From positions 128,001 through 168,159 of the IMG/VR virus record IMGVR_UViG_3300029983_000009: DNA of 40,159 nucleotides; one strand, 5' to 3'. The DNA is from a virus (Duplodnaviria; Heunggongvirae; Uroviricota; Caudoviricetes). Below are positions 7,240 to 40,091 of the stretch, in pieces. Numbering within the stretch: position 1 is the first letter of the stretch; each line of letters starts with the position of its first letter. The notes beneath the pieces were generated by a model. The model was not told the origin of the DNA, made no database searches, and worked only from the letters and a program-made list of their open reading frames with translations. The translations under genes were made by a program, and so were the position numbers.

Positions 7240-7251
7240 ATTGTTATATTG

Positions 7252-9116: not shown

Positions 9117-9128
9117 CTATAATTCAAT

Positions 9129-9164
9129 AAAAAACTCTTTACAAATTGTAAAGAGTTTTTATAT
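9129..9164. terminator. bidirectional hairpin terminator
   Basis: AAAACTCTTTACAA-at-TTGTAAAGAGTTTTT. Confidence 0.5.
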
Positions 9165-9447
9165 TTATTAATTTTAATTTTCTAATATATTTTAAACAAT
9201 CTAATTTGTTATTCACTAAATTTGATATTTTAGTTGAAGTTAATGAATCAGGAATTTTATATAATCTTTCATATTTAGCTATATCAAACTTATTTACAAA
9301 TCCAACCCGTCTAATTAAAAGTAAATATTGTTCTCCTGTTGTAGAAAGTCCATATTCATATAATTCTTTTCTGGTGAATTTTTCATGTGAATTAACAAAT
9401 TCTTTGATATTATACCATTCTGTCATTTCTAAATTGTACTTGTTCAA
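9139..9447 (-). CDS. hypothetical protein (102 aa)
   Basis: ORF with a TTG start in the track. A terminator hairpin lies at its 3' end. Confidence 0.4.
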   Translation of the reverse strand: MNKYNLEMTEWYNIKEFVNSHEKFTRKELYEYGLSTTGEQYLLLIRRVGFVNKFDIAKYERLYKIPDSLTSTKISNLVNNKLDCLKYIRKLKLINIKTLYNL

Positions 9448-9567
9448 TTTTTTCTAATTTAGTTTTTCTATCTTCTTTTCTTTTCTTATTCGCCATTTTT
9501 ATATAAAAATCTTCACAAGATTTTCTAAGCAATTCATTAGGATAAATCCTACCATTTTTATTAGGTA

Positions 9568-9834: not shown

Positions 9835-10609
9835 AACCTATACTCCATCCAAATTGAGGATTTCCTAAATTTGGAGCAGTGTTCAATCCAAATCCACCAT
9901 AAGGTCCAATTCCCCATTTTTTTACTTTAATTGGTTTTTGAATTTGCTTATCAATAAAATATCCTCCTGTCAAATCATTTATTTTAACTTTATCTGATTT
10001 TGATACCGCAAATACTTGATATTTATTATCTAGTTCTTTAAATCCATAAGTTACACTAATACTAGTTAAATTTGTATCAAGAACAGTAACATCAGGTTTT
10101 AATGTCCATTTCTTTGTATCTTCATTTGGAATTGCATAAAATTTGCTTGTGCCAACAATTTTTTGTTGAAATCCACTATCTACATAATTAGTTGAAAACT
10201 TCAATCCGTAATGATTTGACGCACTATCTAAAACTGTCAAATCATTTGATCCTTGTATTCCTCCAAGATTTCCTTCAACATTTGTTTGAATTGCAGATAA
10301 TACTGCACCCTTAACATTCTTAAGTTGATCAGAAAATGATTTATTATATTGCTCTAATTCTGATAATTTATTTAAAACTAAATTGTCTTTTGTAAACTCA
10401 TACGCACTTAGTTTTGTATTGAATACTTTTGTTATACTATCAGTCATTGCTTTAACATTTTGAGTGTATAATTTTGATTGAAATTCACTATTTGCTTTTT
10501 CTTTACTAAGATTTGAACAAGTCTGAAAAAGAAATATTGATAACAAAATAATTACAGCAAAAAATAATAAAGGATAGTATTTTTTTATAAACACTAAAAT
10601 TTTTTCCAT
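9803..10609 (-). CDS. membrane-anchored or secreted protein with an outer-membrane-protein-like C-terminus
   Basis: Hydrophobic N-terminus LLFFAVIILLSIFLFQTC. Glycine-rich C-terminus GGFGLNTAPNLGNPQFGWSIGFGLHYSILQW, ending in an aromatic residue like the C-terminal signal of beta-barrel outer-membrane proteins. Confidence 0.45.
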   Translation of the reverse strand: MEKILVFIKKYYPLLFFAVIILLSIFLFQTCSNLSKEKANSEFQSKLYTQNVKAMTDSITKVFNTKLSAYEFTKDNLVLNKLSELEQYNKSFSDQLKNVKGAVLSAIQTNVEGNLGGIQGSNDLTVLDSASNHYGLKFSTNYVDSGFQQKIVGTSKFYAIPNEDTKKWTLKPDVTVLDTNLTSISVTYGFKELDNKYQVFAVSKSDKVKINDLTGGYFIDKQIQKPIKVKKWGIGPYGGFGLNTAPNLGNPQFGWSIGFGLHYSILQW

Positions 10610-11045: not shown

Positions 11046-13037
11046 TTAACAATTTCCAGCTACTAAAATTTTTCCATTAGCATCTAATTGACACCAAACT
11101 TTAGAACTATCTTTTGATAACCCTAAAAATTTACCTGCATATCCAGAGCATGGCATTGTCAAATTATAATCATTATATACTATGTTATCTTTTATAACTC
11201 CACTTGAATTAGTATAATAAGGTCTAATTTTTGCATCTAATGAACATGAACTTAAACTTGATGTTTGAGTTGGATTTCCAGGACCACTATAAGTAACGTG
11301 TTGAATTGGACTAGTTGTAGTTGTAGTAGTTGTAGTAGCAGGTGCAGAATTATCATATTCATAAATATTTGAATAAACGAATGTTCCTGGAATATCAGCT
11401 TCTAATTTAAATTTCAATATACCTTTTGGTTGTGTTGAAATATAAAATTGTATAGGTGAAGAATTATATGCCATTTCAGGTGTTGAAAATATAACTGGTA
11501 GTCCAGAGTTATATATAAATACATCACCTGAAGAACACCAAATTATTATTTGGTTTGTTCCTATTGGAACTCCACTGAATGATACATCAACATATCCAGG
11601 TTCTGTTATTCTATTAACAACACTATTAATTGTGAATGGAGCGATTGTAGTTGTAGTTGTAGTACTAGATGATGTTGTTGTAGTACTAGATGAAGTTGTT
11701 GTAGTAGTAATAGATGATGCTGTTGTAGTAGTTGTAGTAGTAGGAATTAATGCTGAATTTACAATTATTGATAATGAATTAGATACACCAGAATTTACTA
11801 CAGTAGTAATAAATGAGCCATCATTCCAATATCCATCATTCCAACCGCAATCAAGCATATTTCCATCTGTATACACTCCATATTCAAAAAGACTATCTTT
11901 TGAATCACAATTAGTAAAATTACCATTTTTAATATTTGTATCTTTAAAAAAACTATTTCTAAATGTACCATTATGAATAGTTAATCCAAAAGATAAATGA
12001 TTTGAATTTTTTTCAAATAATGCAGTACTACCATTTTCCATTATTAACATGTTATAATTTTCACTCAACATACCAAATATTGATGATGTTATATTAGAAT
12101 AAAAACCATTGTATATATCACCACCATAAAAATTTATATTTTTATATTTACCATTATAGAAATTACCTCCTACAACATTCAAATTTGAAAAATTACCATT
12201 ATATACATTTGCATTATTAATTGAATATATAATCGAATCATTTTCAATATGTCCCCCATTAATATCAACATCTCCGTCAATATTACAATCAAAAATTATT
12301 CCACCATTTATAACAGATTTTACTGATGTACCAGAAATATTTGAATTTTTCATTGTTCCTCCATTAAAATATCCTCCATTAAATGAACTATCTGTAAATG
12401 TACCATTATTAAAAACACCATCTTCAAACACGCAACCATCAATAAAATCAGCAGAACGAACTAATCCATCAGAAAATATTATACCTATAAAAGTACCACC
12501 ATTTACTGTACCGCCTGACCAAAAACTATTTTCAAATGTTCCTCCATTAAATGTTCCGCCATACCATCCATACGGATTATTAAATGTTCCACTATTCCAT
12601 ACTCCACTTGTCCATGGCTTTGTCCATTCAAAATCAGAATTCTCATTATCCCAAAATCCATTATTAAAAACATTTGTATTATCTATAGAACAGTCAATAA
12701 ATTTTCCGTCATCAATAATATAATTATAAAATGTACAACCACTAAAATATCCATTTTTAATATAATTTGAGCCATCTACATTTCCAGTTATAAAGCAATT
12801 AATAAATCTACCAGTTTCAATATTACAATTATTTAAAGAGCAATCTTCAACAATATTATAATATGTATTATCATCTGATAGAACAGTAGAGGTTTGAGAT
12901 GTATTAGTGTTGGCTTTATCTAAAAATTTAGAAGTATATCCTTCACTAGTGATAATAGATTTTATTCCTGAATATTTATCTATAAATGTCATTCCATAGA
13001 TACTAGTATTTTTAAAAACTCCTTGAGTTACGTTCAT
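11046..13037 (-). CDS. fibre or receptor-binding-like protein with beta-helix-type NGxF/GG repeats and Thr-rich linkers
   Basis: 663 aa. Dozens of NG(G/T)F.NG repeats. Two poly-Thr/Ser linkers, TTTTTTTASSITTTTTSSSTTTT and ATTTTTTTTS. C-terminal Cys-containing module. Confidence 0.55.
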   Translation of the reverse strand: MNVTQGVFKNTSIYGMTFIDKYSGIKSIITSEGYTSKFLDKANTNTSQTSTVLSDDNTYYNIVEDCSLNNCNIETGRFINCFITGNVDGSNYIKNGYFSGCTFYNYIIDDGKFIDCSIDNTNVFNNGFWDNENSDFEWTKPWTSGVWNSGTFNNPYGWYGGTFNGGTFENSFWSGGTVNGGTFIGIIFSDGLVRSADFIDGCVFEDGVFNNGTFTDSSFNGGYFNGGTMKNSNISGTSVKSVINGGIIFDCNIDGDVDINGGHIENDSIIYSINNANVYNGNFSNLNVVGGNFYNGKYKNINFYGGDIYNGFYSNITSSIFGMLSENYNMLIMENGSTALFEKNSNHLSFGLTIHNGTFRNSFFKDTNIKNGNFTNCDSKDSLFEYGVYTDGNMLDCGWNDGYWNDGSFITTVVNSGVSNSLSIIVNSALIPTTTTTTTASSITTTTTSSSTTTTSSSTTTTTTIAPFTINSVVNRITEPGYVDVSFSGVPIGTNQIIIWCSSGDVFIYNSGLPVIFSTPEMAYNSSPIQFYISTQPKGILKFKLEADIPGTFVYSNIYEYDNSAPATTTTTTTTSPIQHVTYSGPGNPTQTSSLSSCSLDAKIRPYYTNSSGVIKDNIVYNDYNLTMPCSGYAGKFLGLSKDSSKVWCQLDANGKILVAGNC

Positions 13038-13112
13038 TTATTTATGTTACTTTTTTCATTATTATATATAAAAATTAATAACTTACAAAAAAAAATAATT
13101 ATATATAAAAGT

Positions 13113-15063: not shown

Positions 15064-15420
15064 TTATGCAACTGCAGTTGTTGTAGTAGTTGTAATTGGC
15101 GCTAAAGTTGTTGTAGTTGTAGCTGGTGCTAAAGTTGTTGTATTAGTAGTAGTTGGATATGCATAAATACTAACTGTTCCTGTTACTACTGTATTACCAG
15201 ATAAATAACTATAATCAACATAAACATCATTATCAACTGGTAATGTAGTTCCTGTAATCATTTGATCATCTATAGTTCTCATTCCAGTAATTTGAAATCC
15301 TGGATAATTTAAAATTTCTGATTGGTTTTCATGAAATTTATATCCTTCACCCCAAGGTGTGGTACTTCCAGTTGGTTGATAGCTAAAAAATGCTCCATCT
15401 ATAATTTTAGTTCTTTTCAT
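15064..15420 (-). CDS. small protein with a Thr-rich tail (TTTNTTTLAPATTTTTLAPITTTTTT)
   Basis: ORF. Its low-complexity tail resembles the fibre linkers. Confidence 0.5.
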   Translation of the reverse strand: MKRTKIIDGAFFSYQPTGSTTPWGEGYKFHENQSEILNYPGFQITGMRTIDDQMITGTTLPVDNDVYVDYSYLSGNTVVTGTVSIYAYPTTTNTTTLAPATTTTTLAPITTTTTTAVA

Positions 15421-15543: not shown

Positions 15544-16398
15544 ATGATAACCATTTTTAAAATATTTGAAAAAACATCTCTTATTAATATAGGAGTACCA
15601 AATTCTGTAATGAAAAGTATGCAAAAAAACTATGAGATTTCAAGTGATGCAGAATGGAAATTATTAAAAGCAAAAAGAGATATTATAAAATATTTAACAG
15701 AGCCAACTAACAATTTAATAATATCTATTTGTAAAGATAGTATATTTGTATCATTCTCTTATGAATCAGAGTATTATATAGAAACATTTGAATTAATTGA
15801 AAAAGATGATTTTGGAAACGAAGATTGGAAAAAATTAGACAGAGTAAAAACAACAATAACTGATATTTTAAGTAAAATTAAAAGAGGATGCAAATCTTAT
15901 GTTATCATATCAGGAGGTTGGTTACCTGAATATTCATCAGAAAGAAAAATAAAAAAATCTGAAATAGAATTTGACTCATTAACAAATCAATTCAAAATAG
16001 ATTTTGCTGAGAACTTCACAAGAATTGTTAAAAATATGTATGGAAAAAAAGCAGATATTGTTTCAGACATTATTGTTAATCATTTAAAAAATGTACAATC
16101 TAATATAAGTGATGAAGAAATTCGTGAAATTTTATTTATAAATGTAGAACGAGCAAAAAATGTAGATGAATTTAAGAAAAAATCAAAAGATAAAGATCCA
16201 TATAAAATTTATTCTAAGATTATAATGGACAATTCACTCACCATATTTGATGAGTATTTAATAAATTTTGAAGACGAAATGTCAGATAAGTACAAAGAAT
16301 ATCTAAATATACCTATTATGATAGAAAATTATAGCAGAGATAAGATATTTACCGCTTTTATGTATTATCTTTACACCAAAAAATTGATGAATCTATAA
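15544..16398 (+). CDS. hypothetical protein, first gene of the KFN(I/L) array (284 aa)
   Basis: N-terminus MITIFKIFEK and C-terminus KKLMNL loosely resemble the family termini. Its stop is fused to the next ATG (TAAATG). Confidence 0.55.
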   Translation: MITIFKIFEKTSLINIGVPNSVMKSMQKNYEISSDAEWKLLKAKRDIIKYLTEPTNNLIISICKDSIFVSFSYESEYYIETFELIEKDDFGNEDWKKLDRVKTTITDILSKIKRGCKSYVIISGGWLPEYSSERKIKKSEIEFDSLTNQFKIDFAENFTRIVKNMYGKKADIVSDIIVNHLKNVQSNISDEEIREILFINVERAKNVDEFKKKSKDKDPYKIYSKIIMDNSLTIFDEYLINFEDEMSDKYKEYLNIPIMIENYSRDKIFTAFMYYLYTKKLMNL

Positions 16399-16719
16399 AT
16401 GAAATATATTAAATCATTTGAAAAAAAATTAACTTTAGAAGAAAAAGACAGAATAGGACATTATGTTATAATAAATCCTATACATGCTACTCCTAATGAA
16501 AGAAAATTTTTTAATAATAATATTGGTAAAATAGTAGGAATAAATATAAATCCAATTGGAAAAGAGAACTTAATAAAAGTAGAATACGATAAAGATATAA
16601 TTCCTTTTAATGTAATATTAGGTAAAGATAATACATATTTAGTTAAAAATTACGAAATAACAAATGAAAATCAAGATGAATTGAAATCTATATTATCATC
16701 AAAAAAATTCAATTTATAA
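16399..16719 (+). CDS. MKxIKTYE...KFN(I/L) family protein
   Basis: MKYIKSFEKK ... KKFNL. Carries the G(D/H)YV small-domain subfamily motif. Confidence 0.6.
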   Translation: MKYIKSFEKKLTLEEKDRIGHYVIINPIHATPNERKFFNNNIGKIVGININPIGKENLIKVEYDKDIIPFNVILGKDNTYLVKNYEITNENQDELKSILSSKKFNL

Positions 16720-17001
16720 ATGAAACACCTTAAAACATATGAAATGGTTCATACATATCCAAAAGAAGGAGATTATGTAATAATTAAATCTGAACAATAT
16801 ATAACCAAAAACCCAGAATTTTACGAAGAATCAAAGAATAAAATTTTTAAAATTGATTCTATCGAAGATGATTATCATTTTTTTATATATTGTAAGTCAA
16901 TAGGATATACTGCAGAATTTCCAATGTCAGAATTGAAATATTGGTCTGATAACGAAGATGAATTAAAAGTTTATCTTGATACAAATAAATTCAATCTATA
17001 A
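16720..17001 (+). CDS. MKxIKTYE...KFN(I/L) family protein
   Basis: MKHLKTYEMV ... NKFNL. GDYVII motif. Confidence 0.6.
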   Translation: MKHLKTYEMVHTYPKEGDYVIIKSEQYITKNPEFYEESKNKIFKIDSIEDDYHFFIYCKSIGYTAEFPMSELKYWSDNEDELKVYLDTNKFNL

Positions 17002-17002
17002 T

Positions 17003-17464
17003 ATGAAATATATTAAAACATATGAAAAAAAGACAATGAAGATTAGTGATTTAAAAAAATCTAATAACACATTATATACCATAGCTAATAGATTTAAAAA
17101 CCTTTTATCAGAAATTAAAAAATTAGAAATAACAGAGGAAAATAAAACTACTCTTAATATGAGAATTGATTCATATGAAAAGATTATTATAGATTATAAT
17201 TATTACTCAGATTGCTTATTTGAAATTGTATTATATTTAGATTTTGATTATAACTATAGATTAGATACTGTTATTCAAGTAAAATCGGTATATAATCAAA
17301 TTCTATATGATTTAATAAATTCAATTTTTAATATTTATATGATATACAATAGTAATAATAATTTTGGTACTTATATAATACCGTCAGATAAAATTATTGA
17401 CGGATTGACTAATTTAGAAAAAAGTTTTTATGCAACAATAAATTCTGAAAAATTCAATTTATAA
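17003..17464 (+). CDS. MKxIKTYE...KFN(I/L) family protein
   Basis: MKYIKTYEKK ... EKFNL. The ATG at 17003 lies 2 nt after the upstream stop. The track ORF starts earlier, at 16976. Confidence 0.55.
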   Translation: MKYIKTYEKKTMKISDLKKSNNTLYTIANRFKNLLSEIKKLEITEENKTTLNMRIDSYEKIIIDYNYYSDCLFEIVLYLDFDYNYRLDTVIQVKSVYNQILYDLINSIFNIYMIYNSNNNFGTYIIPSDKIIDGLTNLEKSFYATINSEKFNL

Positions 17465-17465
17465 A

Positions 17466-17813
17466 ATGAAACATATCAAAACATATGAAAATATTAGTAA
17501 TTATGAAATAAAAATAGGAGATTATGTATTAGCATATATTCAAGGATATAGTGGGATGGATGCTAAAGAATTTATGCATTTTATAAATAATAATATTGGA
17601 ATAATTATAGAAATAGAAAATCCTGATAAAAAGTTTGATAATGTATCAATAGAATATAAAAATGTACCTGAAGATATACGTCATCCATGGTTTAGATATG
17701 ATGAAATAAATGATAAAATATTCAAAAAAGTTAGATATGGAAGAATAGTAGCAAACTCTATAAATAAAGAAGATGTCGAAGGAATATTAATGACAAAAAA
17801 ATTCAATATATGA
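17466..17813 (+). CDS. MKxIKTYE...KFN(I/L) family protein
   Basis: MKHIKTYENI ... KKFNI. GDYVLAYI motif. Paralogous to the minus-strand member at 25401..25736. Confidence 0.6.
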   Translation: MKHIKTYENISNYEIKIGDYVLAYIQGYSGMDAKEFMHFINNNIGIIIEIENPDKKFDNVSIEYKNVPEDIRHPWFRYDEINDKIFKKVRYGRIVANSINKEDVEGILMTKKFNI

Positions 17814-18220
17814 TATATATTAAAGAGGATGAAAATACTGATGATAATATGGTTGGATATCCAAATTTGATACCAGGACAAATGTATATGGAAGATGGTA
17901 CAATTTGCTGTTACATAGGTAACAATAATATGTCAAAATATAATTTGGTATTTTTATTATTTCATTATGACAAAACAATAGATAATTATTTTTTCATTGA
18001 ATGGGTAAATTGGTTAAAATTTACTCCTCTTAATATTGATATTAAAGACTATATTATTAAAAATAACGTAGTACTTAAAACAATTGAATCTATAAAAAAG
18101 CATGAATTTTCTGGTAAAGAAAATGGAAATAGTTTAAATTTGATAAAAAATATTTATAATTCATTATTAGATGATATAGACATATCTATGTTTATAAATA
18201 TAAATAAATTTAATATATAA
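17810..18220 (+). CDS. KFN(I/L) family protein with a variant N-terminus
   Basis: MIYIKEDENT ... NKFNI. ATGA overlap with the upstream stop. Confidence 0.5.
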   Translation: MIYIKEDENTDDNMVGYPNLIPGQMYMEDGTICCYIGNNNMSKYNLVFLLFHYDKTIDNYFFIEWVNWLKFTPLNIDIKDYIIKNNVVLKTIESIKKHEFSGKENGNSLNLIKNIYNSLLDDIDISMFININKFNI

Positions 18221-18240
18221 AATAAATAAATAAATATAAA

Positions 18241-18501
18241 ATGTTAAAAAAATTCGAAAATTTCAATAAAATAACAGAAGATTTCAGACCTGGCATATCA
18301 GCACAAGCATTTTGGGAAAGCAAAGATGAATTGAGAAAAATAATAATTAACAATTTACTGCAAGACAAAACATTAACATTAGATAATTATATAAAATCAA
18401 ATCAATCATATATCAACAGACTTAGTATAGATGATAGAAAAGAGTTTGATGAAGTAATTGACAACTTAAATTTACCAGTTTGGCAAAAACAAAGAAGATA
18501 A
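18241..18501 (+). CDS. hypothetical small protein inside the array
   Basis: MLKKFENFNK... It lacks the KFNI end. Confidence 0.45.
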   Translation: MLKKFENFNKITEDFRPGISAQAFWESKDELRKIIINNLLQDKTLTLDNYIKSNQSYINRLSIDDRKEFDEVIDNLNLPVWQKQRR

Positions 18502-18506
18502 AAAAT

Positions 18507-18971
18507 ATGAAACACGTTAAAGTATATGAGTCTAAAGATGAAGAACAAATGAAAAAAGATCAAGAAAAAGTTGATTTACTAGGAGATTTGTTGAATGAAA
18601 ATCCAAATAATGAAACACATGATTTTTATGTATTTCTTGCATCAGATGTTTTCAAAGAAACAAAAAGTGGGTTATTTAAAAAGGAGTTAAACATTGAAAA
18701 TATGGTTAGAATAACACCTGACTATAACAGCGTAATGTCAATGGCTGGAATAGAAATGAGAGAAAGATTTCAACCAGACACAAAAATGTATCATATATGG
18801 TTACCAAAAGAAGAAAGAGAAGATATTGAAGGCAAAAGTTCAAGTACAATGGAACCTTGGTTAATCAAAATGATAGATAAGAATAAAAAAAGAGGAGGAG
18901 ATGAGCATGGTAAAAAAGTTTATAATGATGCAATTCAAAGAAGAAAAGATTTATCAAAATTTAATATATGA
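18507..18971 (+). CDS. MKxIKTYE...KFN(I/L) family protein
   Basis: MKHVKVYESK ... SKFNI. Start placed at the internal ATG at 18507, where the track ORF begins at 18480. Confidence 0.55.
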   Translation: MKHVKVYESKDEEQMKKDQEKVDLLGDLLNENPNNETHDFYVFLASDVFKETKSGLFKKELNIENMVRITPDYNSVMSMAGIEMRERFQPDTKMYHIWLPKEEREDIEGKSSSTMEPWLIKMIDKNKKRGGDEHGKKVYNDAIQRRKDLSKFNI

Positions 18972-19231
18972 AAATTAAAAAATTTAATGGGGTAAAAGAT
19001 AAATATTTATATGTATCTCCATTTACTGAAGAAGGTATTTATTATATTTGTAATGAATGCTATAGTAATAAATTAAGAATGATAAAAAAAGGAGGATTTC
19101 AAACTCCAAGTTACGAGTGTGATAATTGTGGTTCGACTGTTTATGCCCCAATGAATCTAACTCCTAATAGATACAAAGAATATCTAATAGATAAAATAAT
19201 TAGGAATAAAACAAAAAAATTCAACATATAA
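18968..19231 (+). CDS. KFN(I/L) family protein with a zinc-ribbon
   Basis: MKIKKFNG... with CNEC...CDNC and the end KKFNI. ATGA overlap. Confidence 0.55.
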   Translation: MKIKKFNGVKDKYLYVSPFTEEGIYYICNECYSNKLRMIKKGGFQTPSYECDNCGSTVYAPMNLTPNRYKEYLIDKIIRNKTKKFNI

Positions 19232-19233
19232 TA

Positions 19234-19614
19234 ATGGAAAAATACACTAAAATATATGAAGATATTAAAAAGGAAAAATGGGATAATTATTGTATAATTA
19301 TAAGTTATTCTAATGTAGATGATGGTGAAGATCCAGATGTTTATCTTTGTGATAATGAAAATCAAGGATTTATATATCTTAAAAATTTAATTTATAATTC
19401 ATATCATAATCAAATTGATATAGATTTTTACAAATCAATGCTAATTGAATATAGTAGTGCAGAAAATCTTAATGACTTATATGAAATTTATATGTCTAGA
19501 AATAGAGATATAAAAGTTATGCTAATTTATTGTGAATTAAATGAAAACATTGAACTTGAAAAATGGATAATAGATTTTGAAATAGTAAACACATCTAGTA
19601 AATTTAATTTATAA
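19234..19614 (+). CDS. KFN(I/L) family protein
   Basis: MEKYTKIYED ... SSKFNL. Confidence 0.55.
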   Translation: MEKYTKIYEDIKKEKWDNYCIIISYSNVDDGEDPDVYLCDNENQGFIYLKNLIYNSYHNQIDIDFYKSMLIEYSSAENLNDLYEIYMSRNRDIKVMLIYCELNENIELEKWIIDFEIVNTSSKFNL

Positions 19615-19615
19615 T

Positions 19616-20281
19616 ATGAAACACATAAAATATTTTGAGAATATATATGATATAAATAAAGATGAAAATAGACTTTTAACTTTAAGCTATCATGAAAATG
19701 AATTAACTTTACCTATATTTAAAAAATTTCTTGATGAACATAAAAACATTAATATTAATGTTCAAAATGCTGATCGTGGTTGGACTCCTTTATTAATTGC
19801 GGTTAATAATAATGGATTTGAATTTGCTAAAATGCTTCTTGATAGAGGAGCAGATCCAAATATTTTTTCTAATACACCAGAACTTGGAAAATTTCCATTT
19901 GATAATGACTCAGTAATGAAAAAAATGATAGATACTGCACATGAATTAGATCATCAATCTAATGATTTTATAAATGAGTATTGGAATTTTTTAGATACAT
20001 TAATTCCATTTACAGATTTAGATAAACAGACAGAAATTTTCAAAAGAACTCCATTAATTATAGTTGCAGAAAATATAGGAATTAGAATAAATACTGAAGT
20101 TGGTTTAAAATTAATGAAAAATTTTCTGAAAGAAAAACCAAATTTGAGTATAAAAGATAATAAAGATTATGACTTTATAGATCATTTGATTAGAAAATCA
20201 AATTATGATATTATTGAAGAATTAAGTAATGAATTTAATAGTGTTGATTTATTATATAAATCTAAAAAATTTAATATATAA
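19616..20281 (+). CDS. MKxIKTYE...KFN(I/L) family protein carrying ankyrin repeats
   Basis: MKHIKYFENI. Ankyrin signature GWTPLLIAVNNNGFEFAKMLLDRGADPN. The end is KSKKFNI. Confidence 0.65.
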   Translation: MKHIKYFENIYDINKDENRLLTLSYHENELTLPIFKKFLDEHKNININVQNADRGWTPLLIAVNNNGFEFAKMLLDRGADPNIFSNTPELGKFPFDNDSVMKKMIDTAHELDHQSNDFINEYWNFLDTLIPFTDLDKQTEIFKRTPLIIVAENIGIRINTEVGLKLMKNFLKEKPNLSIKDNKDYDFIDHLIRKSNYDIIEELSNEFNSVDLLYKSKKFNI

Positions 20282-20299
20282 AAAATATTTAATAATACA

Positions 20300-20338
20300 A
20301 AAAAAGCATAAAGATAATTTACTTTATGCTTTTTTTAT
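20300..20338 (+). terminator. hairpin plus T-tract terminating the family array
   Basis: AAAAAGCATAAAG-ataattta-CTTTATGCTTTTTTT. Confidence 0.55.
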
Positions 20339-20386: not shown

Positions 20387-20710
20387 ATGGAAAATATAAA
20401 TATATCAGATAAAGAACAATACACATTTGAAAAATATCCAAAATTATCATCCAGTAAATTTACATATGAAAATAGTTGTAGAAACATAGGATGTCAATTT
20501 CCAGATTTTTATAAAATTGAAAGCGGAAATGATAGAAATTGGACTATACTTGGTTATACATTAAATCCACCTTTTGATAGTAATGTAAAAGAGCCTCTTG
20601 CTATAATGTATGAAAATACTAAAACATTTGATATTGTTTGGTATCATCACGATTTAGATATGTTTAAAGAAGTGAAAGTTAGTATATTAAAAAATAACAT
20701 TAATAGATAA
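20387..20710 (+). CDS. hypothetical protein (107 aa)
   Basis: ORF preceded by a TATCTTTG box at 20360-20367. Confidence 0.5.
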   Translation: MENINISDKEQYTFEKYPKLSSSKFTYENSCRNIGCQFPDFYKIESGNDRNWTILGYTLNPPFDSNVKEPLAIMYENTKTFDIVWYHHDLDMFKEVKVSILKNNINR

Positions 20711-20711: not shown

Positions 20712-20939
20712 ATGGAAAATGGATTTTATTTTTGTGTTCTAAAACAATATCCTGATGAACAATTTAAAGTTAAAGTAGAATGGAGAGGAGTTAATAGGAC
20801 TAGAATAACTTTTCCAAACGGCACTCCAACTATAGATGAATGTGGATATTCTAAAATATACTTTACTGATGAATTTCTTAATGTATATGAATTATTAGAT
20901 TATATTCGGCCAATTAATCATGAAGATTTATTAGATTAA
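20712..20939 (+). CDS. hypothetical protein (75 aa)
   Basis: ORF 1 nt after the upstream stop. Followed by a terminator hairpin. Confidence 0.45.
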   Translation: MENGFYFCVLKQYPDEQFKVKVEWRGVNRTRITFPNGTPTIDECGYSKIYFTDEFLNVYELLDYIRPINHEDLLD

Positions 20940-24305: not shown

Positions 24306-24344
24306 GAAAAAAAAGTCATTCTTAAATATAAGAATGACTTTTTC
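24306..24344. terminator. bidirectional hairpin serving the micro-ORF locus on the plus strand and gene 24362..24838 on the minus strand
   Basis: AAAAAAAAGTCATTCTTA-aatat-TAAGAATGACTTTTT. Confidence 0.5.
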
Positions 24345-24361
24345 CATATAATTTAATTGTA

Positions 24362-24838
24362 TTATACTTCTTCTGCTGCTTCTTGAGCATTTTCTAATTT
24401 CTTAGCAAGATTAATACCTTCTTCACCTAATTCTCCATTATTCAATTTATCAATAATATCGTTGTAATGTTTTAACTCAATGTTAACTTCATCAACAACT
24501 TCTTCATCAACATCTTTTCTTTTAAATAATGATGCACTTTTTTGTCCTAATCTTGTTATTAAATCTGCAAATTCCTTACCACGCTCACCTAATTTATAAT
24601 TTCTAAGTAATTCTATTGCTCCACTAGTTGCTACAGAAGCAATGTTTCTTCCAATTAAGCCTACCGCTAATGCATCAATTGAAATCCCTAGCCAATAATA
24701 AACTTGCTCTAATGAACTTAATGATGACGCATGAGTAAATAATTCAGCCCATACATTTTCATTTATTTTATCTTTGTTTTCTTTGTTTTCTTTGTTTTCT
24801 TCTGATACAAATGAATCAAAATATTTAATTTTTTTCAT
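24362..24838 (-). CDS. hypothetical protein with an ENKENKENK repeat
   Basis: N-terminus MKKIKYFDSF resembles the family N-terminus. The tandem tttctttgtt repeat in the DNA encodes ENKENK. Confidence 0.5.
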   Translation of the reverse strand: MKKIKYFDSFVSEENKENKENKDKINENVWAELFTHASSLSSLEQVYYWLGISIDALAVGLIGRNIASVATSGAIELLRNYKLGERGKEFADLITRLGQKSASLFKRKDVDEEVVDEVNIELKHYNDIIDKLNNGELGEEGINLAKKLENAQEAAEEV

Positions 24839-24879: not shown

Positions 24880-25404
24880 TTATATATTGAATTTATCAGC
24901 ATTTAATATATATGATAATTCTTTTTTTACATTAGAACTAAAATTGTCTGAATATTTTTTATAATATTCTTTAAATTTTGATAAATCTGTGAAATTAGAT
25001 ACTACTTCAATTATTTTATTATCCAATTTATCAATCAAATCAGGTTTATAATATTTATAAATTTTATCCTCTATCTTAAATATTGAATTTCTATTAACTT
25101 GTGTAGAAGAATTAATATTTTTTTCTTTAATAAATTTATCTATATTATTGTAAAAACTATTTTTATCAGAATATGAATTATTTATTCCAATAAGATTATT
25201 GAAAATTGTTCTATATTCAAATCTATCGTATTCTAGTTCAGATAAAGTTAAGATATCAATTTTATCTAAAATGTTCAATTTTTTTATATAATCAGTCATA
25301 AAATCAGTGAGTAAATTATCTTCTTCTGTAGTTAAATATTTATATTCTGAGCGTTTATTGTAATCAGATGACTCTCTTCCTTCAAATGTTTTTAAATATT
25401 TCAT
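24880..25404 (-). CDS. MKxIKTYE...KFN(I/L) family protein
   Basis: MKYLKTFEGR ... ADKFNI. Confidence 0.55.
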   Translation of the reverse strand: MKYLKTFEGRESSDYNKRSEYKYLTTEEDNLLTDFMTDYIKKLNILDKIDILTLSELEYDRFEYRTIFNNLIGINNSYSDKNSFYNNIDKFIKEKNINSSTQVNRNSIFKIEDKIYKYYKPDLIDKLDNKIIEVVSNFTDLSKFKEYYKKYSDNFSSNVKKELSYILNADKFNI

Positions 25405-25736
25405 ATATTAAATTTTTTTGTTTCTAACTTCATTTTTAATTCCTCAATTGTTTTACTATGTTCAACTATTCTACGAATATCAAAATTTCTTGTACATAAA
25501 TCATTTTTAATATTAAAATAACTTTTTATACTTTCAGGTACGTCATCATATAATACATAAATATCAGTATTTTTATGCCTATTATCAATACTGTATATTT
25601 TTCCAATCGTACTATTTATAAAATTTTCTATATCTGTCAGTTTTTGAGTATACTTAGATATATTAATTTTAACTAATACATAATCTCCAACTGTTAATTC
25701 ATCTTCTATATTTTCATAAAATTTAAAAATTTTCAT
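25401..25736 (-). CDS. MKxIKTYE...KFN(I/L) family protein
   Basis: MKIFKFYENI...GDYVLV... ending TKKFNI. ATGA overlap with the downstream member. Confidence 0.55.
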   Translation of the reverse strand: MKIFKFYENIEDELTVGDYVLVKINISKYTQKLTDIENFINSTIGKIYSIDNRHKNTDIYVLYDDVPESIKSYFNIKNDLCTRNFDIRRIVEHSKTIEELKMKLETKKFNI

Positions 25737-27362: not shown

Positions 27363-27677
27363 ATGAAAACAAAATCAGAAATAATTAAAGAAGAAATTGA
27401 ATTAAAGAAAAAAGAACTTGAACAATTAGAAAAAGAGGAAAAATTAGAATTACGACACTCAGTTATTAAAGATTTATCTGAATATACAACACAAGAAAAA
27501 TGTGATTATTTTGATAAAATATACAATCGTGCAGAACTAGTGTTAAAGTTAGCTGAAGAAGAATCAGATGAAGAAGACACTGATCGTGATTCATGGGAGA
27601 AAATGATGGAAACATTAGCAAGAGATACTGAGTCATTTTGGACTTATTATAATAATATATTTGAAGGAGACGAATAA
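27363..27677 (+). CDS. coiled-coil acidic protein, paralog 1
   Basis: MKTKSEIIKEEIELKKKELEQLEKEEKLEL...SFWTYYNNIF. Paralogous to the next ORF. Confidence 0.5.
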   Translation: MKTKSEIIKEEIELKKKELEQLEKEEKLELRHSVIKDLSEYTTQEKCDYFDKIYNRAELVLKLAEEESDEEDTDRDSWEKMMETLARDTESFWTYYNNIFEGDE

Positions 27678-27680: not shown

Positions 27681-27989
27681 ATGAAAACAGAAATAGAAAG
27701 TCTTAGAGCAGAAATTGAAAGAAAGAAAGAAGAACTTGAACAATTAGAATTACAAGAAAAATTAGGAGTTAAAGGATTATCAATTAAAGATTTATCTGAA
27801 TTTACAGATTTTGAAAAATGTAATTTTTTTGATTATTTATATAAATCATCATTAGACAGATTAAATAATACAATAGAAAATGAATATGAAGACGATGATG
27901 ATGAACATTATGCATGGGAGGAATGTATGTTAATACTAGCTCGTGATAAAGATTCTTTTTGGACTTATTATAATAAATTAATAAAATAA
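27681..27989 (+). CDS. coiled-coil acidic protein, paralog 2
   Basis: MKTEIESLRAEIERKKEELEQLELQEKLGV...SFWTYYNKLIK. Confidence 0.5.
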   Translation: MKTEIESLRAEIERKKEELEQLELQEKLGVKGLSIKDLSEFTDFEKCNFFDYLYKSSLDRLNNTIENEYEDDDDEHYAWEECMLILARDKDSFWTYYNKLIK

Positions 27990-31495: not shown

Positions 31496-31768
31496 ATGAA
31501 GCATATCAAGATTTATGAATATTTTAAAGATAATATAGAAATAGATAACTATGATTTGGCACTTGAATTAGAATTCAAATTTAGAACATCTAATCAAGAA
31601 GATAAGAAAAATAAAAGCATCTTTGATGTTTTAAATGAATTAGGTATTCAGAAAGGAGATTTAACTGGAGTAGATTTAGGAAAAATTCTACAACTTCAAA
31701 TGAAATTCAAAAAACAATCTGATGAAGAATTCTTAAAAATGTACAATGAACACATAAAAAAACTCTGA
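31496..31768 (+). CDS. small protein with the family-type N-terminus MKHIKIYE
   Basis: The N-terminus matches the family but the C-terminus (HIKKL) does not. Followed by a terminator hairpin. Confidence 0.45.
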   Translation: MKHIKIYEYFKDNIEIDNYDLALELEFKFRTSNQEDKKNKSIFDVLNELGIQKGDLTGVDLGKILQLQMKFKKQSDEEFLKMYNEHIKKL

Positions 31769-32739: not shown

Positions 32740-33171
32740 ATGAATCATATCAAATCATATAAAATATATGAATCAGAAGGATGGAATAAAGATGTTGACT
32801 GGAAATATGTCATAGAACATCCTGATGATAAAAGTGATGAAGCAAGTTTAATTAGAGATTTACAGGAAAAACTAGATGATGTGATATCTATGTTAGATAA
32901 TTATAACATATTCGAAATTGTTAATATTAAAGGAAATGATTTAGATTATGGTTCTTATGCGATAGTTAGTATATTTGATAAAAACTATAAAATAAGTGAA
33001 GTATATTCAATAGATAAATTATGCATTGAAGATTTTCCAATAAATAATCCTAATGAAGATGAAACAACTGGATATATAGGAGATACAAATGAAATAGCAG
33101 AATTATTAAATATGATTTATAAATCTGGCGGAATGGAAATATACCAATCAATAAAAAAATATAATATATAA
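32740..33171 (+). CDS. family-related protein, tandem paralog 1 (MNHIKSYKIYE...KKYNI)
   Basis: Paralog of the next ORF. Shares EASLI..L.E.LD and FPINN with it. The end is KKYNI. Confidence 0.55.
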   Translation: MNHIKSYKIYESEGWNKDVDWKYVIEHPDDKSDEASLIRDLQEKLDDVISMLDNYNIFEIVNIKGNDLDYGSYAIVSIFDKNYKISEVYSIDKLCIEDFPINNPNEDETTGYIGDTNEIAELLNMIYKSGGMEIYQSIKKYNI

Positions 33172-33175: not shown

Positions 33176-33622
33176 ATGAAGCACTTAAAACAGTATAAAA
33201 TATATGAGGCAGGAGAATGGAGCAGAGGGATTAATTGGGAATATGTCAAAGAAAATCCAGATGATGACAGTGAAGAAGCAAGTTTAATTAAATATTTAGA
33301 AGAAAGATTAGATTATATAATTTCAAATTTAGATGACGATAACATATTAAAAATTGATGATATCAGGGGACATGATTTATATCAAGGTGCTTATGCATTA
33401 GTTAAAATATTTGGGGTAAGATATACTATATGGAACACTGGCGCTCAATCAGGAGGATCAGAAGATACATTATATATTGAAGGATTTCCGATAAATAATC
33501 TTGATGAAGATTCAAATCCTGGATTTATTGGTGTTCCTAATGATATATATGATTTATTGAATTGTATTTATCAAGTTGGAGGAATAGAAATATATAAAAC
33601 AACAAAAAAATATAATATCTAA
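33176..33622 (+). CDS. family-related protein, tandem paralog 2 (MKHLKQYKIYE...KKYNI)
   Basis: See the previous ORF. Confidence 0.55.
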   Translation: MKHLKQYKIYEAGEWSRGINWEYVKENPDDDSEEASLIKYLEERLDYIISNLDDDNILKIDDIRGHDLYQGAYALVKIFGVRYTIWNTGAQSGGSEDTLYIEGFPINNLDEDSNPGFIGVPNDIYDLLNCIYQVGGIEIYKTTKKYNI

Positions 33623-33623: not shown

Positions 33624-34769
33624 ATGAAATATATATATTCATTCAAAGAAATAAATGAATCAAATTTAGAACAAACTAAAAATTATCTTACTATATTATT
33701 TGAAAATGAAAATTGGAAAATTGAAAAAGCTAATTCATTTGAAGCATTAACTGAGTGGTCAGAAGATGGTAATATTAATATGAGTTCATATAAAGGAAAT
33801 TTTGAGAATCTTTTTTTAAATACAAACAAAAAAACTGATGATAAAATAGTATTTGATTTTGATAGAGGTGATTTTTATACATTAGATGACGATAATATTG
33901 ATTTGAAAGAAACAATTGAAGATAATACTGAACTACTAAATTTCTATGGAGAAAATCTTAACTGCAAAAATATTGTTAAAGATGATGATGAATATTGGTT
34001 AGTTATTGATGATTATAAATTCTTTGTTGACTATTTTAAGGTAGATAGCAACACATCAAATGATTTAATATCAACAGTTTTATCTGGTGATTCTTATGAT
34101 ATATTTGATTATCATAATACAGAGTTTAGTATCACTGAAAGCATGAAATTATCTAAAGATAATTTAGATTTAATTAAAATAATACTAGCACTTGAACTAA
34201 TTAATAATGGTTATGATTATGATATTGATGATATTGATGATTATTCTGATGCTGTTGATATAATAGAAGAGAATGAAATGGAAGAATTTAAAGATATTTT
34301 ATTAAATTGTATTCGTTCAGGACATGAATCTGCAGATGCTGATGAGGCTTGGAATGATATAATAAAAGAAGCATATTCATTCTTTAATATATTAAAAGAT
34401 TCTAATAAATGGGAATATCATAATAATAGTAAAGAAAAAATGCTATGGATAAAATTTGAAAATTCAACTGACGCATACAAAGCAAAATTTATAATTAATA
34501 AATATGATGATAGTTATCAAGATGATGTGATTAATTATTCACAACCTTACTATGGTTATACTGGAGACATTAAAAATATAATTGAAACTTTCAATGAAGT
34601 CTTACCAGATAAAATATATGAATATGGTAGTGATACAGTAGATAGAGACGATATTAGTGATTCTTATGATATATTCACAGAACAAAAAGAGAAAAATCCT
34701 GATATAAAAGTATCTGACATAATTGAAAATTTAAAAATGTATTTAGATACTAAAAAATTTAACATATAA
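33624..34769 (+). CDS. KFN(I/L) family protein, large and acidic (381 aa)
   Basis: MKYIYSFKEINE ... TKKFNI. D/E-rich. Confidence 0.55.
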   Translation: MKYIYSFKEINESNLEQTKNYLTILFENENWKIEKANSFEALTEWSEDGNINMSSYKGNFENLFLNTNKKTDDKIVFDFDRGDFYTLDDDNIDLKETIEDNTELLNFYGENLNCKNIVKDDDEYWLVIDDYKFFVDYFKVDSNTSNDLISTVLSGDSYDIFDYHNTEFSITESMKLSKDNLDLIKIILALELINNGYDYDIDDIDDYSDAVDIIEENEMEEFKDILLNCIRSGHESADADEAWNDIIKEAYSFFNILKDSNKWEYHNNSKEKMLWIKFENSTDAYKAKFIINKYDDSYQDDVINYSQPYYGYTGDIKNIIETFNEVLPDKIYEYGSDTVDRDDISDSYDIFTEQKEKNPDIKVSDIIENLKMYLDTKKFNI

Positions 34770-34770: not shown

Positions 34771-35259
34771 ATGATAACAAAATTTAATAAATTTACTCTA
34801 AATGAAACTATGATATCACATGATACAAATGAATTACATAGTGGCAGTTATTTATCATTAGAAAGATTAGAAAATGGTAATTTAAAAATATCATTAACTG
34901 AAGAAGGCAAAGAAAAAATAGCTGAAGATGATATAAGTGATTCAGAATTTTGGGATTATTTTGAAGATATAACAGGAAATTCTGGATTGGTATATTTTAA
35001 TGATATATCAGAACTTGGTATTATGATGGAAGCTCCTGGAATCACAATTGGATATTATTATAACGATGATGGAGAATATACAGATGAAGGAAATGAAGAT
35101 TGGTCTGAAGTTTTTTATTATGGAGATTCTGCTATTAGGGATTTCACAGAAGAATTAAAAAATAATGGAGAAGTAATATTTCAAACATCTGGTGTATTAA
35201 CTCCTGAAGAATTTGACGAATTTAAATTGAATAAAACTGCAAACAAATTTAATTTATGA
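34771..35259 (+). CDS. KFN(I/L) family protein
   Basis: MITKFNKFTLNE ... ANKFNL. ATGA overlap with the next gene. Confidence 0.55.
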   Translation: MITKFNKFTLNETMISHDTNELHSGSYLSLERLENGNLKISLTEEGKEKIAEDDISDSEFWDYFEDITGNSGLVYFNDISELGIMMEAPGITIGYYYNDDGEYTDEGNEDWSEVFYYGDSAIRDFTEELKNNGEVIFQTSGVLTPEEFDEFKLNKTANKFNL

Positions 35260-35588
35260 TAACAAATTTTAAAATATTTGAAACTAATGATATTCCATAT
35301 TTTTCAGTAGGTGATGAAGTTACTTGTATTGATGATGTACCTTGGATAGATGGAGATAGTGGTTATCCAGTAATAGGAGAGAAATATTTAGTTATTAGAA
35401 TTTACATAGAAAATGAAGATAATAATTACAATATTTATGAAATTGATCAAGAATTCGTAAAAGAATTAAATATAAACACTACTTATGTTGATGTTAAAAA
35501 TATTAAAACTGATATGATATTAAAAAACTGGTGTGCTAGTAGGTTCAATTCAGAAATAAGAACATCATCAAACAAATTTAATATATAA
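35256..35588 (+). CDS. KFN(I/L) family protein (GDEV small-domain subfamily)
   Basis: MITNFKIFETND ... SNKFNI. Confidence 0.55.
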   Translation: MITNFKIFETNDIPYFSVGDEVTCIDDVPWIDGDSGYPVIGEKYLVIRIYIENEDNNYNIYEIDQEFVKELNINTTYVDVKNIKTDMILKNWCASRFNSEIRTSSNKFNI

Positions 35589-38918: not shown

Positions 38919-40091
38919 ATGATAATTAAATTCAAAATATACGAGAAAAAGGCAACGCCAGAATATTATAGTTTTTATGAAGATTTCAAATCTATACTTG
39001 ATGTAAATCACTATATAAATATTCTAAAAACAAAGAATATAACAGAATATGAAGAAGATAGATTATTATATTTTGCTTGTAGAGAGCTTCCAGAATTATC
39101 AGTTAAATTAGTTGATTATATTCCTACAAAAACATTTTCAAAAAATAACTCAGCAGTTGCTGAACTTCCTTATAATTATTTTAAATCTATATTAAAAAAT
39201 GATAATATTTATAACGCATTAATAAATAATTCAGAATTTTTTAGTAATCTTGTATATCACAATTCAGATGTAAAAAATTTTAAATTATTAAAAGATTTAG
39301 GAGCAACATTCAATCAAGATTTATTAATGACAGCTTGTTTTAAAGGTAGTTTAGATATCGTTAAGTTTTTAATTAGCACAGGATTAGATCCGAACAAAAA
39401 GAAAGATGCTACATTTTCAAGAGCACCAGAAAATTGTATGGATTATGCAACAAAATATAATGATAATTATAATGTAATAAAATATCTTGTTGATTTAGGT
39501 GTTCCAGTAACATATAGACACATTTATAATGTAATACAAAAAGGAAATTTAGATGCAGTACCTTATTTAGTAAATTCTAAAAATTTAGTAGAAGATTATT
39601 CATTTTCTTCATATGCTACACATTCAGAAGATAAATATCAATATACATTAAGTAGTTTAGTTTCATTAATGTTAAGTAAGAATTTAAATAAATATGTAAA
39701 AATAATACTTGATAAACAAAAAGATGAAGGTTATAATATATTACAAGGATTACCTTTTGAGTATTATAATAAAGATAAAATTTTAAATACAAAATATTTA
39801 GAATTAGCATATCGTATTATAAGTAATTATGATGGTAAATATGAAAATTCATTCACTACTGAATTCATAACTAATTACAATGAAAAGTTTTGGCTCAATA
39901 AAATGAAAAAAAATCCATCTATAATATCAAAATTAAGATGTCTTGATTTTAGTATATTAAAATCATATGATTATCAGAAAATAATATTAGAATATGATAT
40001 AGATAATTTAAAACACATCAAAAATATTTTAAATCCTAAAATAGAGAAAGAATTTGATTATTTAATAAACACAAGTAAATTTAACATATAA
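38919..40091 (+). CDS. KFN(I/L) family protein carrying ankyrin-like repeats
   Basis: MIIKFKIYEKK. Ankyrin-like LMTACFKGSLDIVKFLISTGLDPN. The end is TSKFNI. Confidence 0.55.
   Translation: MIIKFKIYEKKATPEYYSFYEDFKSILDVNHYINILKTKNITEYEEDRLLYFACRELPELSVKLVDYIPTKTFSKNNSAVAELPYNYFKSILKNDNIYNALINNSEFFSNLVYHNSDVKNFKLLKDLGATFNQDLLMTACFKGSLDIVKFLISTGLDPNKKKDATFSRAPENCMDYATKYNDNYNVIKYLVDLGVPVTYRHIYNVIQKGNLDAVPYLVNSKNLVEDYSFSSYATHSEDKYQYTLSSLVSLMLSKNLNKYVKIILDKQKDEGYNILQGLPFEYYNKDKILNTKYLELAYRIISNYDGKYENSFTTEFITNYNEKFWLNKMKKNPSIISKLRCLDFSILKSYDYQKIILEYDIDNLKHIKNILNPKIEKEFDYLINTSKFNI

Follow-up and report, generated by a model that had tools for sequence, protein, structure and literature searches.

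The internal proteins of bacteriophage T4 (IPI, IPII, IPIII, and Alt) are unrelated proteins that share a short N-terminal peptide, the capsid targeting sequence (CTS), which starts with MK, is hydrophobic at positions 4 and 7, and has a glutamate nearby (PMC9026906, PMC3012670). The function of the CTS depends on residues 4 and 7 (PMC9026906), and the proteins that carry it are diverse anti-defence proteins with only this sequence in common (PMC3012670). We have analyzed a stretch of 40,159 nucleotides of DNA from a virus of the class Caudoviricetes, an uncultivated huge phage related to T4 (positions 128,001 to 168,159 of IMG/VR record IMGVR_UViG_3300029983_000009; the whole stretch is called the window hereafter), which contains arrays of genes encoding small proteins with variable middles, a common N-terminal octapeptide, and a common C-terminal end. 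Both ends of this tagged family are conserved by selection on the protein, and we propose that they serve as address tags. The N-terminal peptide shares with the T4 sequence its MK start, the hydrophobic residues at positions 4 and 7, and the nearby glutamate, but it comprises 8 residues instead of 10, and homology to IPI, IPII, IPIII, or Alt was found neither in PHROG (10 members searched) nor in Pfam. Furthermore, there are dozens to hundreds of family members per genome compared with a handful in T4. The likeness to T4 extends to related phages, which have a T4-type portal, a putative prohead protease, Gp23, and a late sigma factor. In T4, Alt is processed at both ends.

Other described systems share one or the other property with the family. 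The PeSL (promoter-early stem-loop) cassettes of T4-type phages are also small open reading frames (ORFs) of variable regions that are gained, lost, or swapped via short flanking repeats, in which the indels between close relatives end (PMC2839356, PMC4122927), but the PeSL is an intergenic regulatory repeat, whereas the repeats described here are coding gene ends, with almost no intergenic DNA and with in-frame chimeras. The ejection or inner-body proteins of the giant phages phiKZ and SPN3US are numerous packaged proteins, some of them paralogous, in phages with a Glu-specific prohead protease (PMC5694885, PMC7411985); however, they are not defined by a shared terminal octapeptide and C-terminal tetrapeptide, and no homology with them was detected. 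The ankyrin/PRANC proteins of poxviruses combine, like the tagged family, variable binding repeats with a constant terminal element and form expanded tandem multigene families. Yet PRANC is a folded domain of about 60 residues in a eukaryotic virus, compared with an 8-residue peptide and an 18-residue helix found on many folds, and no PRANC or F-box match was found with Pfam in the ankyrin members of the family. In the extracellular contractile injection systems (eCIS), including the Photorhabdus virulence cassettes (PVC), a disordered N-terminal leader of about 50 poorly conserved residues suffices to load diverse payloads into a phage-derived particle. The resemblance here is the disordered N-terminal leader on diverse cargo, and the difference is that eCIS are a separate apparatus. 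These systems have been reviewed (PMC8213781). No described family or system matches the tagged family, and its bipartite tag and its scale are unprecedented. The T4 internal proteins with their CTS and PeSL shuffling come nearest, but the former differ in a defining way by the lack of homology and of the cleavage site in most members, and the latter by its intergenic regulatory repeats.

An earlier note on this DNA had reported at least 18 ORFs with shared ends, 11 of them arranged head-to-tail at 15544-20281. In our census, 15 of the 77 ORFs of at least 60 codons in the window ended in KFN[I/L] and 2 more in KYNI, while 0.0075 KFN[IL] ends were expected from the amino-acid frequencies of the window. 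KFN[IL] occurred 16 times in the window ORFs, 15 times as the last four residues of the protein. The strict N-motif, MK[HY][ILV]Kx[YF]E, was present in 8 ORFs, always from residue 1 (about 1e-4 expected), and the other members had variants such as MITxFK[IL]FE, MKIKKFN, and MKHIKxYKI[FY]E. The ends are therefore shared far beyond chance, though the octapeptide in its strict form is restricted to 8 members. The coordinates of the 11 ORFs in the block were reproduced, but only 9 are full members, the gene at 15544 having a chimeric start and a degenerate end and the one at 18241-18501 being a non-member. As for the members claimed outside the block, both ends were indeed found at 24880-25736 (minus strand), 32740-35588, and 38919, while 31496 has the N-motif only. 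The genes and the hairpins that close their arrays are as follows.

15544..16398, plus strand: first array gene, 284 amino acids, chimeric N-motif MITIFKIFE and degenerate C-end KKLMNL
16399..16719, plus strand: family member, 106 amino acids, SH3-like (GDYV) payload, MKYIKSFE...KKFNL
16720..17001, plus strand: family member, 93 amino acids, SH3-like payload, MKHLKTYE...NKFNL
17003..17464, plus strand: family member, 153 amino acids, unique payload, MKYIKTYE...EKFNL
17466..17813, plus strand: family member, 115 amino acids, SH3-like payload, KFN[I/L] end; protein chosen for the structure model
17810..18220, plus strand: family member, 136 amino acids, N-variant MIYIKEDE...NKFNI; ATGA overlap of its start with the stop of the gene before it
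18241..18501, plus strand: inserted non-family gene, 86 amino acids, MLKKFENF...QKQRR, no Pfam match; without counterpart in the syntenic relative L019
18507..18971, plus strand: family member, 154 amino acids, MKHVKVYE...SKFNI
18968..19231, plus strand: family member, 87 amino acids, zinc-ribbon-like payload (CxxC...CxxC); cassette without counterpart in L019
19234..19614, plus strand: family member, 126 amino acids, acidic, MEKYTKIYE...SKFNL
19616..20281, plus strand: family member, 221 amino acids, ankyrin payload (Ank_2, 2.2e-10); last array gene, keeps KKFNI with no family gene after it
20299..20336, plus strand: intrinsic-terminator-like hairpin and T-run, closes the array
24308-24345, minus strand: terminator-like hairpin after the minus-strand array
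24362..24838, minus strand: last gene of the minus-strand array, 158 amino acids, N-motif-like start MKKIKYFD, no C-motif
24880..25404, minus strand: family member, 174 amino acids, MKYLKTFE...DKFNI
25401..25736, minus strand: family member, 111 amino acids, SH3-like payload, MKIFKFYE...KKFNI
31496..31768, plus strand: N-motif-only gene, 90 amino acids, MKHIKIYE, ends IKKL; T-tract and TATATAA box upstream
32740..33171, plus strand: family member, first array gene, 143 amino acids, double N-motif MNHIKSYKIYE, C-end KKYNI; T-tract and TATATAA box upstream
33176..33622, plus strand: family member, paralog of 32740, 148 amino acids, MKHLKQYKIYE...KKYNI
33624..34769, plus strand: family member, 381 amino acids, very acidic (pI 4.15), MKYIYSFKE...KKFNI
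34771..35259, plus strand: family member, 162 amino acids, MITKFNKF...NKFNL
35256..35588, plus strand: family member, last of its array, 110 amino acids, MITNFKIFE...NKFNI
38919..40091, plus strand: solitary family member, 390 amino acids, ankyrin payload (Ank_2, 1e-8), MIIKFKIYE...SKFNI; T-tract and TATATAA box upstream, ending 3 nt from the ATG

A matching contig that extends upstream of the window (L034, positions 1-9500) contained 16 more family genes, with a 13-gene minus-strand array co-oriented behind, and overlapping, a NUDIX hydrolase gene. With these, about 36 family genes lie in about 50 kb, where between about one quarter and one third of all genes belong to the family. About a quarter of the region studied here is given over to it.

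The family is very large and restricted to phages. A search of IMG/VR for the junction pattern yielded 18 stretches of the KFN type and 9 of the KYN type, with 2-19 members each and a G+C content of 20-28%. With a profile of the SH3-like subfamily, 2,263 cluster representatives (50% identity) were retrieved at E <= 1e-3, and 790 when the threshold was set to E <= 1e-10; the top ones among the matches listed were about 100-125 amino acids long and aligned over their full length, and P0018, a near-identical homolog of the 16720..17001 protein, matched with an E-value of 1.9e-19. Of 154 SH3-like proteins, 148 had a K[FY]N[ILVM] end and 124 the octapeptide start. Family genes were found only on metagenomic phage contigs, where their products are annotated as 'hypothetical protein' at best. 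No match was obtained by tblastn against 50,697 GenBank phage genomes, by megablast of the array, or by a structural search of BFVD at E <= 0.001. The 10 members searched had no PHROG match, no Pfam family was found for members beyond their payload domains, a look-up of the 390-residue ankyrin protein returned no record, and a search of the published literature for the motif strings found no paper containing them.

The anatomy of the proteins was examined with 108 distinct members (62-456 amino acids, median 120), taken from the window and the first 18 IMG/VR stretches. The N-motif has the consensus M-K-[Y/H]-[I/L]-K-x-[F/Y]-E and is followed by a polar linker. It was conserved across 54 unrelated payload clusters, and among 149 SH3-like members M1, K5, and E8 were each more than 90% conserved. 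The C-terminal end, which had been described as a constant tetrapeptide, turned out to be a module of about 18 residues, [ED]E[LF]E[LI]xLx[TAS][NK]K[FY]N[LI]. The claim that the middles are unrelated holds insofar as the 108 members fall into 54 sequence clusters, but not all are unrelated, since 23 members form an SH3-like group and 11 share an ankyrin middle. In 71 members scanned with Pfam, the payload domains were ankyrin (7), leucine-rich repeat (LRR; 2), DMP19-like (1), and ExoX_C (1), and no catalytic domain was matched. The ankyrin payloads at 19616 and 38919 and the acidic nature of the 33624 protein, all noted before, were borne out by the data listed above; for the zinc ribbon at 18968 the cysteine pattern is present, but the Pfam zinc-finger matches were weak. 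The members are soluble and mostly acidic, with a median pI of 5.4. Ankyrin orthologs of the 19616-20281 protein kept both ends down to 46% identity (one of them, P0160, ends in KKYNL), whereas a generic ankyrin protein used for comparison had neither.

We modelled the 17466-17813 protein with AlphaFold2, with a mean predicted local distance difference test (pLDDT) score of 83 with 12 aligned sequences and of 87.8 with 149. Residues 1-10 scored below 50 in both runs, although they are the most conserved columns. The N-octapeptide is thus predicted to be disordered despite being the best-conserved segment of the protein. A confident helix was seen at residues 101-113, with the last five residues looser, and the C-terminal module can be modelled as an 18-residue amphipathic helix ending in K[F/Y]N[L/I].

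Both ends are conserved by selection on the protein and not on the DNA. Synonymous codons within the motifs were at least as diverse as in the background, and codons ending in C were even enriched relative to the gene bodies (TTC, 28% versus 16%; AAC, 27% versus 12%; TAC, 34% versus 11%; CAC, 33% versus 17%). The spacing from stop to ATG ranged from -4 to +4 nt (-4 in 47 cases, +1 in 22, +2 in 19, -1 in 6, and 0 in 4). First genes of arrays kept the N-motif, last genes the C-motif, and the solitary 38919 gene both, indicating that a DNA element spanning the junctions is not the cause of the conservation. The sole visible constraint on the DNA was that the last codon is nearly always NTA (ATA 41, ATT 4), which accounts for the ATGA overlap. 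The family genes are real and fast-evolving, with a dN/dS of 0.16-0.55 for orthologs in the syntenic relative (L019-L021, 61-87% identity), compared with 0.035 for gp32. When termini and middles of orthologs were compared (75%, 71%, and 66% identity), no higher conservation of the termini was observed, the motif tolerating changes within residue classes.

Evidence for a shared partner that would read the ends came from their distribution. The N- and C-motifs occurred together (both, 94; N only, 15; C only, 63; neither, 221) with an odds ratio of about 22, even with the strict N pattern. The aromatic residue of the C-motif was nearly uniform within a contig and differed between lineages (16 F and no Y in L009, 19 Y and no F in L033, 15 F and 2 Y in the window), which points to a single shared reader. 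For 8 of 19 KYN members the nearest payload relative was a KFN member. Homogenization by gene conversion is unlikely because the third codon positions remain mixed. The simplest reading of these sequence patterns would be that many tags co-evolve with one lineage-specific partner.

The earlier note had also proposed to look for cassettes present in some related phages and absent from others, and these were found. Related arrays differed from one another by ten distinct, clean insertions or deletions of 150 bp or more, of which six had both breakpoints within about 30 nt or less of family gene ends and were whole cassettes. In four of these six, the flanking alignments overlapped by 15-38 bp, indicating a direct repeat at the joint. 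The zinc-ribbon cassette (18968-19231) is an indel bounded exactly by two KFNI-coding repeats, and L027 has two cassettes, flanked by a small gene of the late operon and by the head-closure gene, that L032 lacks. Another cassette, present in L019 and L021 (L019 7702-8082), is missing from the window, with the joint inside the sequence coding for the N-motif; the first ~27 nt of the 15544 gene match this missing neighbour, so that the MITIFKIFE start of the 284-residue protein is explained as the neighbour's start left behind by the deletion. As a side effect, then, the motif-coding repeats at gene boundaries serve as a substrate for recombination, by which entire cassettes are lost, gained, or joined in frame. 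Doubled motifs (MKHIKxYKIFE) and the fused ORF P0008 are expected by-products of this recombination. P0008, a metagenomic protein of 243 residues, consists of two SH3-like units in a single ORF, the first lacking the KYNL stop junction, and is a read-through fusion of neighbouring cassettes. Not all insertions concerned the family: directly after the array terminator, in the segment 20295-20955, the non-family genes 20387-20710 and 20712-20939 are inserted relative to L019.

Taken together, these data are best accounted for by tags that are read in trans, on proteins whose genes recombine as cassettes, and we would put the probability of this combined model at about 0.55. That the ends are tags recognized in trans by a shared partner is, taken on its own, probable. 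The proteins would be modular, with a free, disordered N-octapeptide and linker, a variable protein-binding domain (an SH3-like barrel, ankyrin, LRR, a zinc ribbon, or one of many orphan folds), and a C-terminal amphipathic helix. The two ends would act as address tags for one partner co-evolving with each phage lineage, and the shared tag would bring many different binders to a common destination. The likeliest destination would be the assembling prohead, the N-tag working like the CTS of T4, and another hub such as a protease or an unfoldase would be the main alternative. Proteins made late in infection could in this way be packaged and delivered to the next host together with the DNA, as a prefabricated stock of binders and inhibitors.

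The capsid-targeting function is our best specific guess because relatives carrying the family or the N-motif have a T4-type head module, located outside the window itself. One gene run, in L027, comprised a gp55-like late sigma factor (PHROG, 6e-5), an 88-residue protein, two family cassettes, a head-closure protein (5.8e-40), a 254-residue protein, and a T4-type portal (Portal_T4 in Pfam, 1e-60). On longer contigs, the portal homolog was followed by a gene for 138-170 residues, a 792-residue protein, and a Gp23 capsid protein. The 792-residue protein (L036 12342-14720, L037 12385-14763) gave faint Peptidase_S77/S80 matches and has a GEFDHPD...SRVSH N-domain and a long C-terminal region; it appears to be a T4/phiKZ-type prohead protease domain fused to a region that may be a scaffold. 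The capsid proteins of the relatives have an S-L-N-E site near residue 43 that resembles the (L/I)-x-E maturation site of T4. Small proteins with the N-motif only cluster near the head module (L037 3814, 5682, and 5933; L027 5989).

A conserved 428-residue protein with an N-motif-like start (MKNLKYDLF...) is encoded just upstream of the cluster of late sigma factor and head genes in four lineages (L036 5817-7103, L037 6494-7780, L027 6233-7516, L032 6087-7370). It had no family match and may be a structural protein that relies on this N-terminal signal as well.

The array heads 31496, 32740, and 38919 are preceded, at 3-25 nt, by a T-tract and an [A/T]ATATATAA box, which also occurs before the pentapeptide-repeat gene 11046-13037 and before the NUDIX gene that heads the 13-member array. 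Its positions are given below.

13062-13074, minus strand, window: [A/T]ATATATAA box
31469-31481, window: [A/T]ATATATAA box
32713-32725, window: [A/T]ATATATAA box
38903-38915, window: [A/T]ATATATAA box
10455-10498, relative L027: [A/T]ATATATAA box
9955-10000 and 12290-12341, relative L036: [A/T]ATATATAA box
9955-10000 and 12330-12384, relative L037: [A/T]ATATATAA box

The window contained 18 matches to the box compared with 5 expected, and in 16 sources it preceded 26 of 147 operon heads versus 4 of 226 internal genes. In relatives it was found before the portal genes of three lineages and the protease genes of two. We consider it a candidate phage-specific promoter, possibly of the gp55-dependent late type. 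Terminator-like hairpins were found only at array ends, after the plus-strand and the minus-strand array, and the arrays, with their overlapping or abutting stops and starts, are operon-like and consistent with translational coupling. A scan of the window for sigma-70 promoters (117 found, 123 expected) was uninformative in such AT-rich DNA.

A virion destination is made more plausible by the box shared with head genes and by the hydrophobic character of positions 4 and 7, which recalls the CTS. Position 4 was I or L in 66-88% of the members and position 7 F or Y in 69-87%. The Acb3 anti-CBASS homolog encoded beside member 38919 also counts in favour of this destination. Several observations weigh against the proposed tags or their virion destination. 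The members are mostly acidic, whereas the T4 internal proteins are basic. They are also very numerous (about 36 in 50 kb), and a cleavage site of the T4 type, (L/I)-x-E, is missing from most of them. E8 is conserved, yet about 50-60% of the members have T or K at position 6 (P3) and no more than about 10% have L or I there; the site is matched only by the MITxFK[IL][FY]E and ...YK[IL][FY]E variants. Nothing in the T4 CTS corresponds to the C-terminal module, which the analogy leaves unexplained. The ATATATAA box is also present before a 5'-3' exonuclease gene, so it is not necessarily late-specific, and one array is co-oriented behind a NUDIX gene. Finally, the structure model covers only the SH3-like subfamily, and the F/Y pattern rests on few independent lineages. 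On balance, a T4-type prohead as the destination, with the N-tag acting like the CTS, is a tentative proposal that falls short of even odds. A still broader version, in which huge T4-related phages would have a protein-addressing system of their own, is doubtful; in it, a lineage-specific receptor in the prohead core would read the bipartite code and load hundreds of binders per genome, to be co-injected as a reshuffled arsenal for anti-defence and takeover, the coding repeats doubling as recombination joints.

Among the alternatives, the one that survives best is that the exposed ends (an N-terminal peptide, and at the C-terminus basic residues followed by hydrophobic-x-hydrophobic-COOH), with a possible likeness to ClpX or PDZ recognition motifs, are degrons or docking tags that would bring the binders to a host or phage protease, an unfoldase, or another hub, for their own turnover or for the destruction of bound host targets. 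No catalytic domain was matched among the payloads, which are binding modules, the ends are exposed in the model, the C-end changes in a lineage-specific manner, AAA+ ATPases and peptidases are encoded at related loci, and the poxvirus ankyrin/F-box adaptors offer an analogy. Yet the analysis pointed to no particular partner, known degrons gave no match in sequence, and the late-looking expression fits packaging better. We consider this explanation unlikely.

A structural role, in which the N-terminal strand and the C-terminal helix or tail would pair in cis as a clasp or in trans in chains or oligomers, is less likely still. It would agree with the confident packing of the C-helix in the SH3-like model, with the alternating hydrophobic residues in both motifs, and with their co-occurrence. 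However, the N-octapeptide was unstructured in both AlphaFold2 runs. Direct pairing of the two ends was also unsupported by covariation, none being detected between the aromatic residues at N7 and C-3 (p = 0.12-0.49). In ankyrin solenoids (here of 221-390 residues), moreover, the N-terminus and the C-terminus are expected at opposite tips of the molecule.

The idea of a recombination box, raised in the earlier note, fared in two ways; as a primary function it would mean that the junction (...AAATTYAAYWTATAA-ATGAAAYAYMTHAAA...) is kept for cassette exchange, the peptides being a by-product. The motif-coding repeats are indeed where cassettes are gained and lost, as witnessed by the breakpoints and overlaps described above, by the chimeric and doubled N-motifs, and by P0008. 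As a primary function it is nevertheless very improbable: the DNA is conserved no further than the protein motif demands, the amino acids being fixed while synonymous sites vary as much as the background or more, the distance between the two halves is not fixed (-4 to +4 nt), genes without a family neighbour keep the motifs, and F or Y is uniform per genome while TTT/TTC and AAT/AAC are mixed. The protein tag raised in the same note gains indirect support from protein-level selection, the conserved and predictedly disordered N-motif, the co-occurrence of both motifs, and the lineage-uniform C-terminal aromatic.

We attach equally little weight to a translation signal, i.e. ends that optimize initiation independent of a Shine-Dalgarno (SD) sequence, an early-elongation ramp, or termination-reinitiation coupling in a Bacteroidetes-type host. 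In its favour, SD-like sequences are rare (3 of 77 ORFs), stops overlap or adjoin the next start, the last codon is strongly NTA and gives the ATGA overlap, and AAA is common as codon 2. But C-ending codons are enriched rather than depleted in the motifs; the aromatic residue at position 7, E8, and the 18-residue C-helix are features of the amino-acid sequence; first genes keep the N-motif and last genes the C-motif; and non-family genes of the same operons lack the motifs. Chance or codon bias as the source of the shared ends is rejected by the 15 KFN[IL] ends observed against 0.0075 expected. A host origin, which the earlier note had suggested checking, was rejected after a scan of 185,579 bacterial and archaeal species genomes for the junction pattern, in which only 3 isolated matches, attributed to chance, turned up and arrays were absent.

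Most genes of huge phages are unexplained, and the tagged family has thousands of diverged metagenomic members. If the tags are what we propose, they would provide a sequence rule to predict which proteins of uncultivated phages travel together, for instance into the virion, a catalogue of small natural binders (SH3-like, ankyrin, LRR) probably directed against host proteins or defences, and a minimal peptide to try for cargo loading. The cassette indels represent a distinct route of gene turnover in phages, in which recombination of coding ends in frame creates chimeras without disrupting the operon.

The window has a G+C content of 23.4%. TAnnTTTG boxes were found upstream of 7252-7707 (minus strand), 13926, 20387, 25834, and 28094, i.e. 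before gp32 and several non-family genes. TAnnTTTG is the type of -7 element found in Bacteroidetes promoters. These boxes and the near-absence of SD-like sequences fit a Bacteroidetes-type host. The T4-type gp32, already noticed in the earlier note, was confirmed with Pfam (4e-20). Its nearest relatives (42-47% identity) were those of the uncultured huge phages LR756501-4 and LR745206 (634-735 kb), which belong to the 'Mahaphage' clade and are predicted to infect Bacteroidetes (PMC7162821). The 40-kb neighbourhoods centred on gp32 in LR756504 and LR756501 contained no KFN-type gene; the whole genomes were not scanned for the motifs.

Several other features of the window deserve mention. A GT4 glycosyltransferase, an N6/N4 DNA methyltransferase, and a D12 (Dam-type) methyltransferase are encoded at 2227-3453, 3722-4495, and 5696-6544 (plus strand) in a single co-oriented block, which may be a DNA-modification or anti-restriction module. 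Three tandem pairs of paralogs outside the tagged family, without Pfam match where tested, were found at 6775-7239 and 7252-7707 (minus strand, MWIKIN...), at 27363-27677 and 27681-27989 (plus strand, MKT(K/E)..EI...), and at 30212-30421 and 30425-30646 (plus strand, M(D/N)(I/V)ETEKI...). Two tRNA-Gln(UUG) genes (31794-31866 and 31955-32040, minus strand) separate the N-motif-only gene 31496 from the array beginning at 32740. The Acb3 homolog (38135-38896, plus strand), directly upstream of the ankyrin member 38919-40091, starts with TTG and matched Pfam PF25187 'CBASS inhibitor Acb3' with an E-value of 1.5e-41 over its full length (profile positions 20-244 of 245). Finally, the gene at 15064-15420 (minus strand) encodes a 118-residue protein that ends in a threonine-rich tail (TTTNTTTLAPATTTTTLAPITTTTTTAVA) and shares 80% identity with its counterpart in L019.

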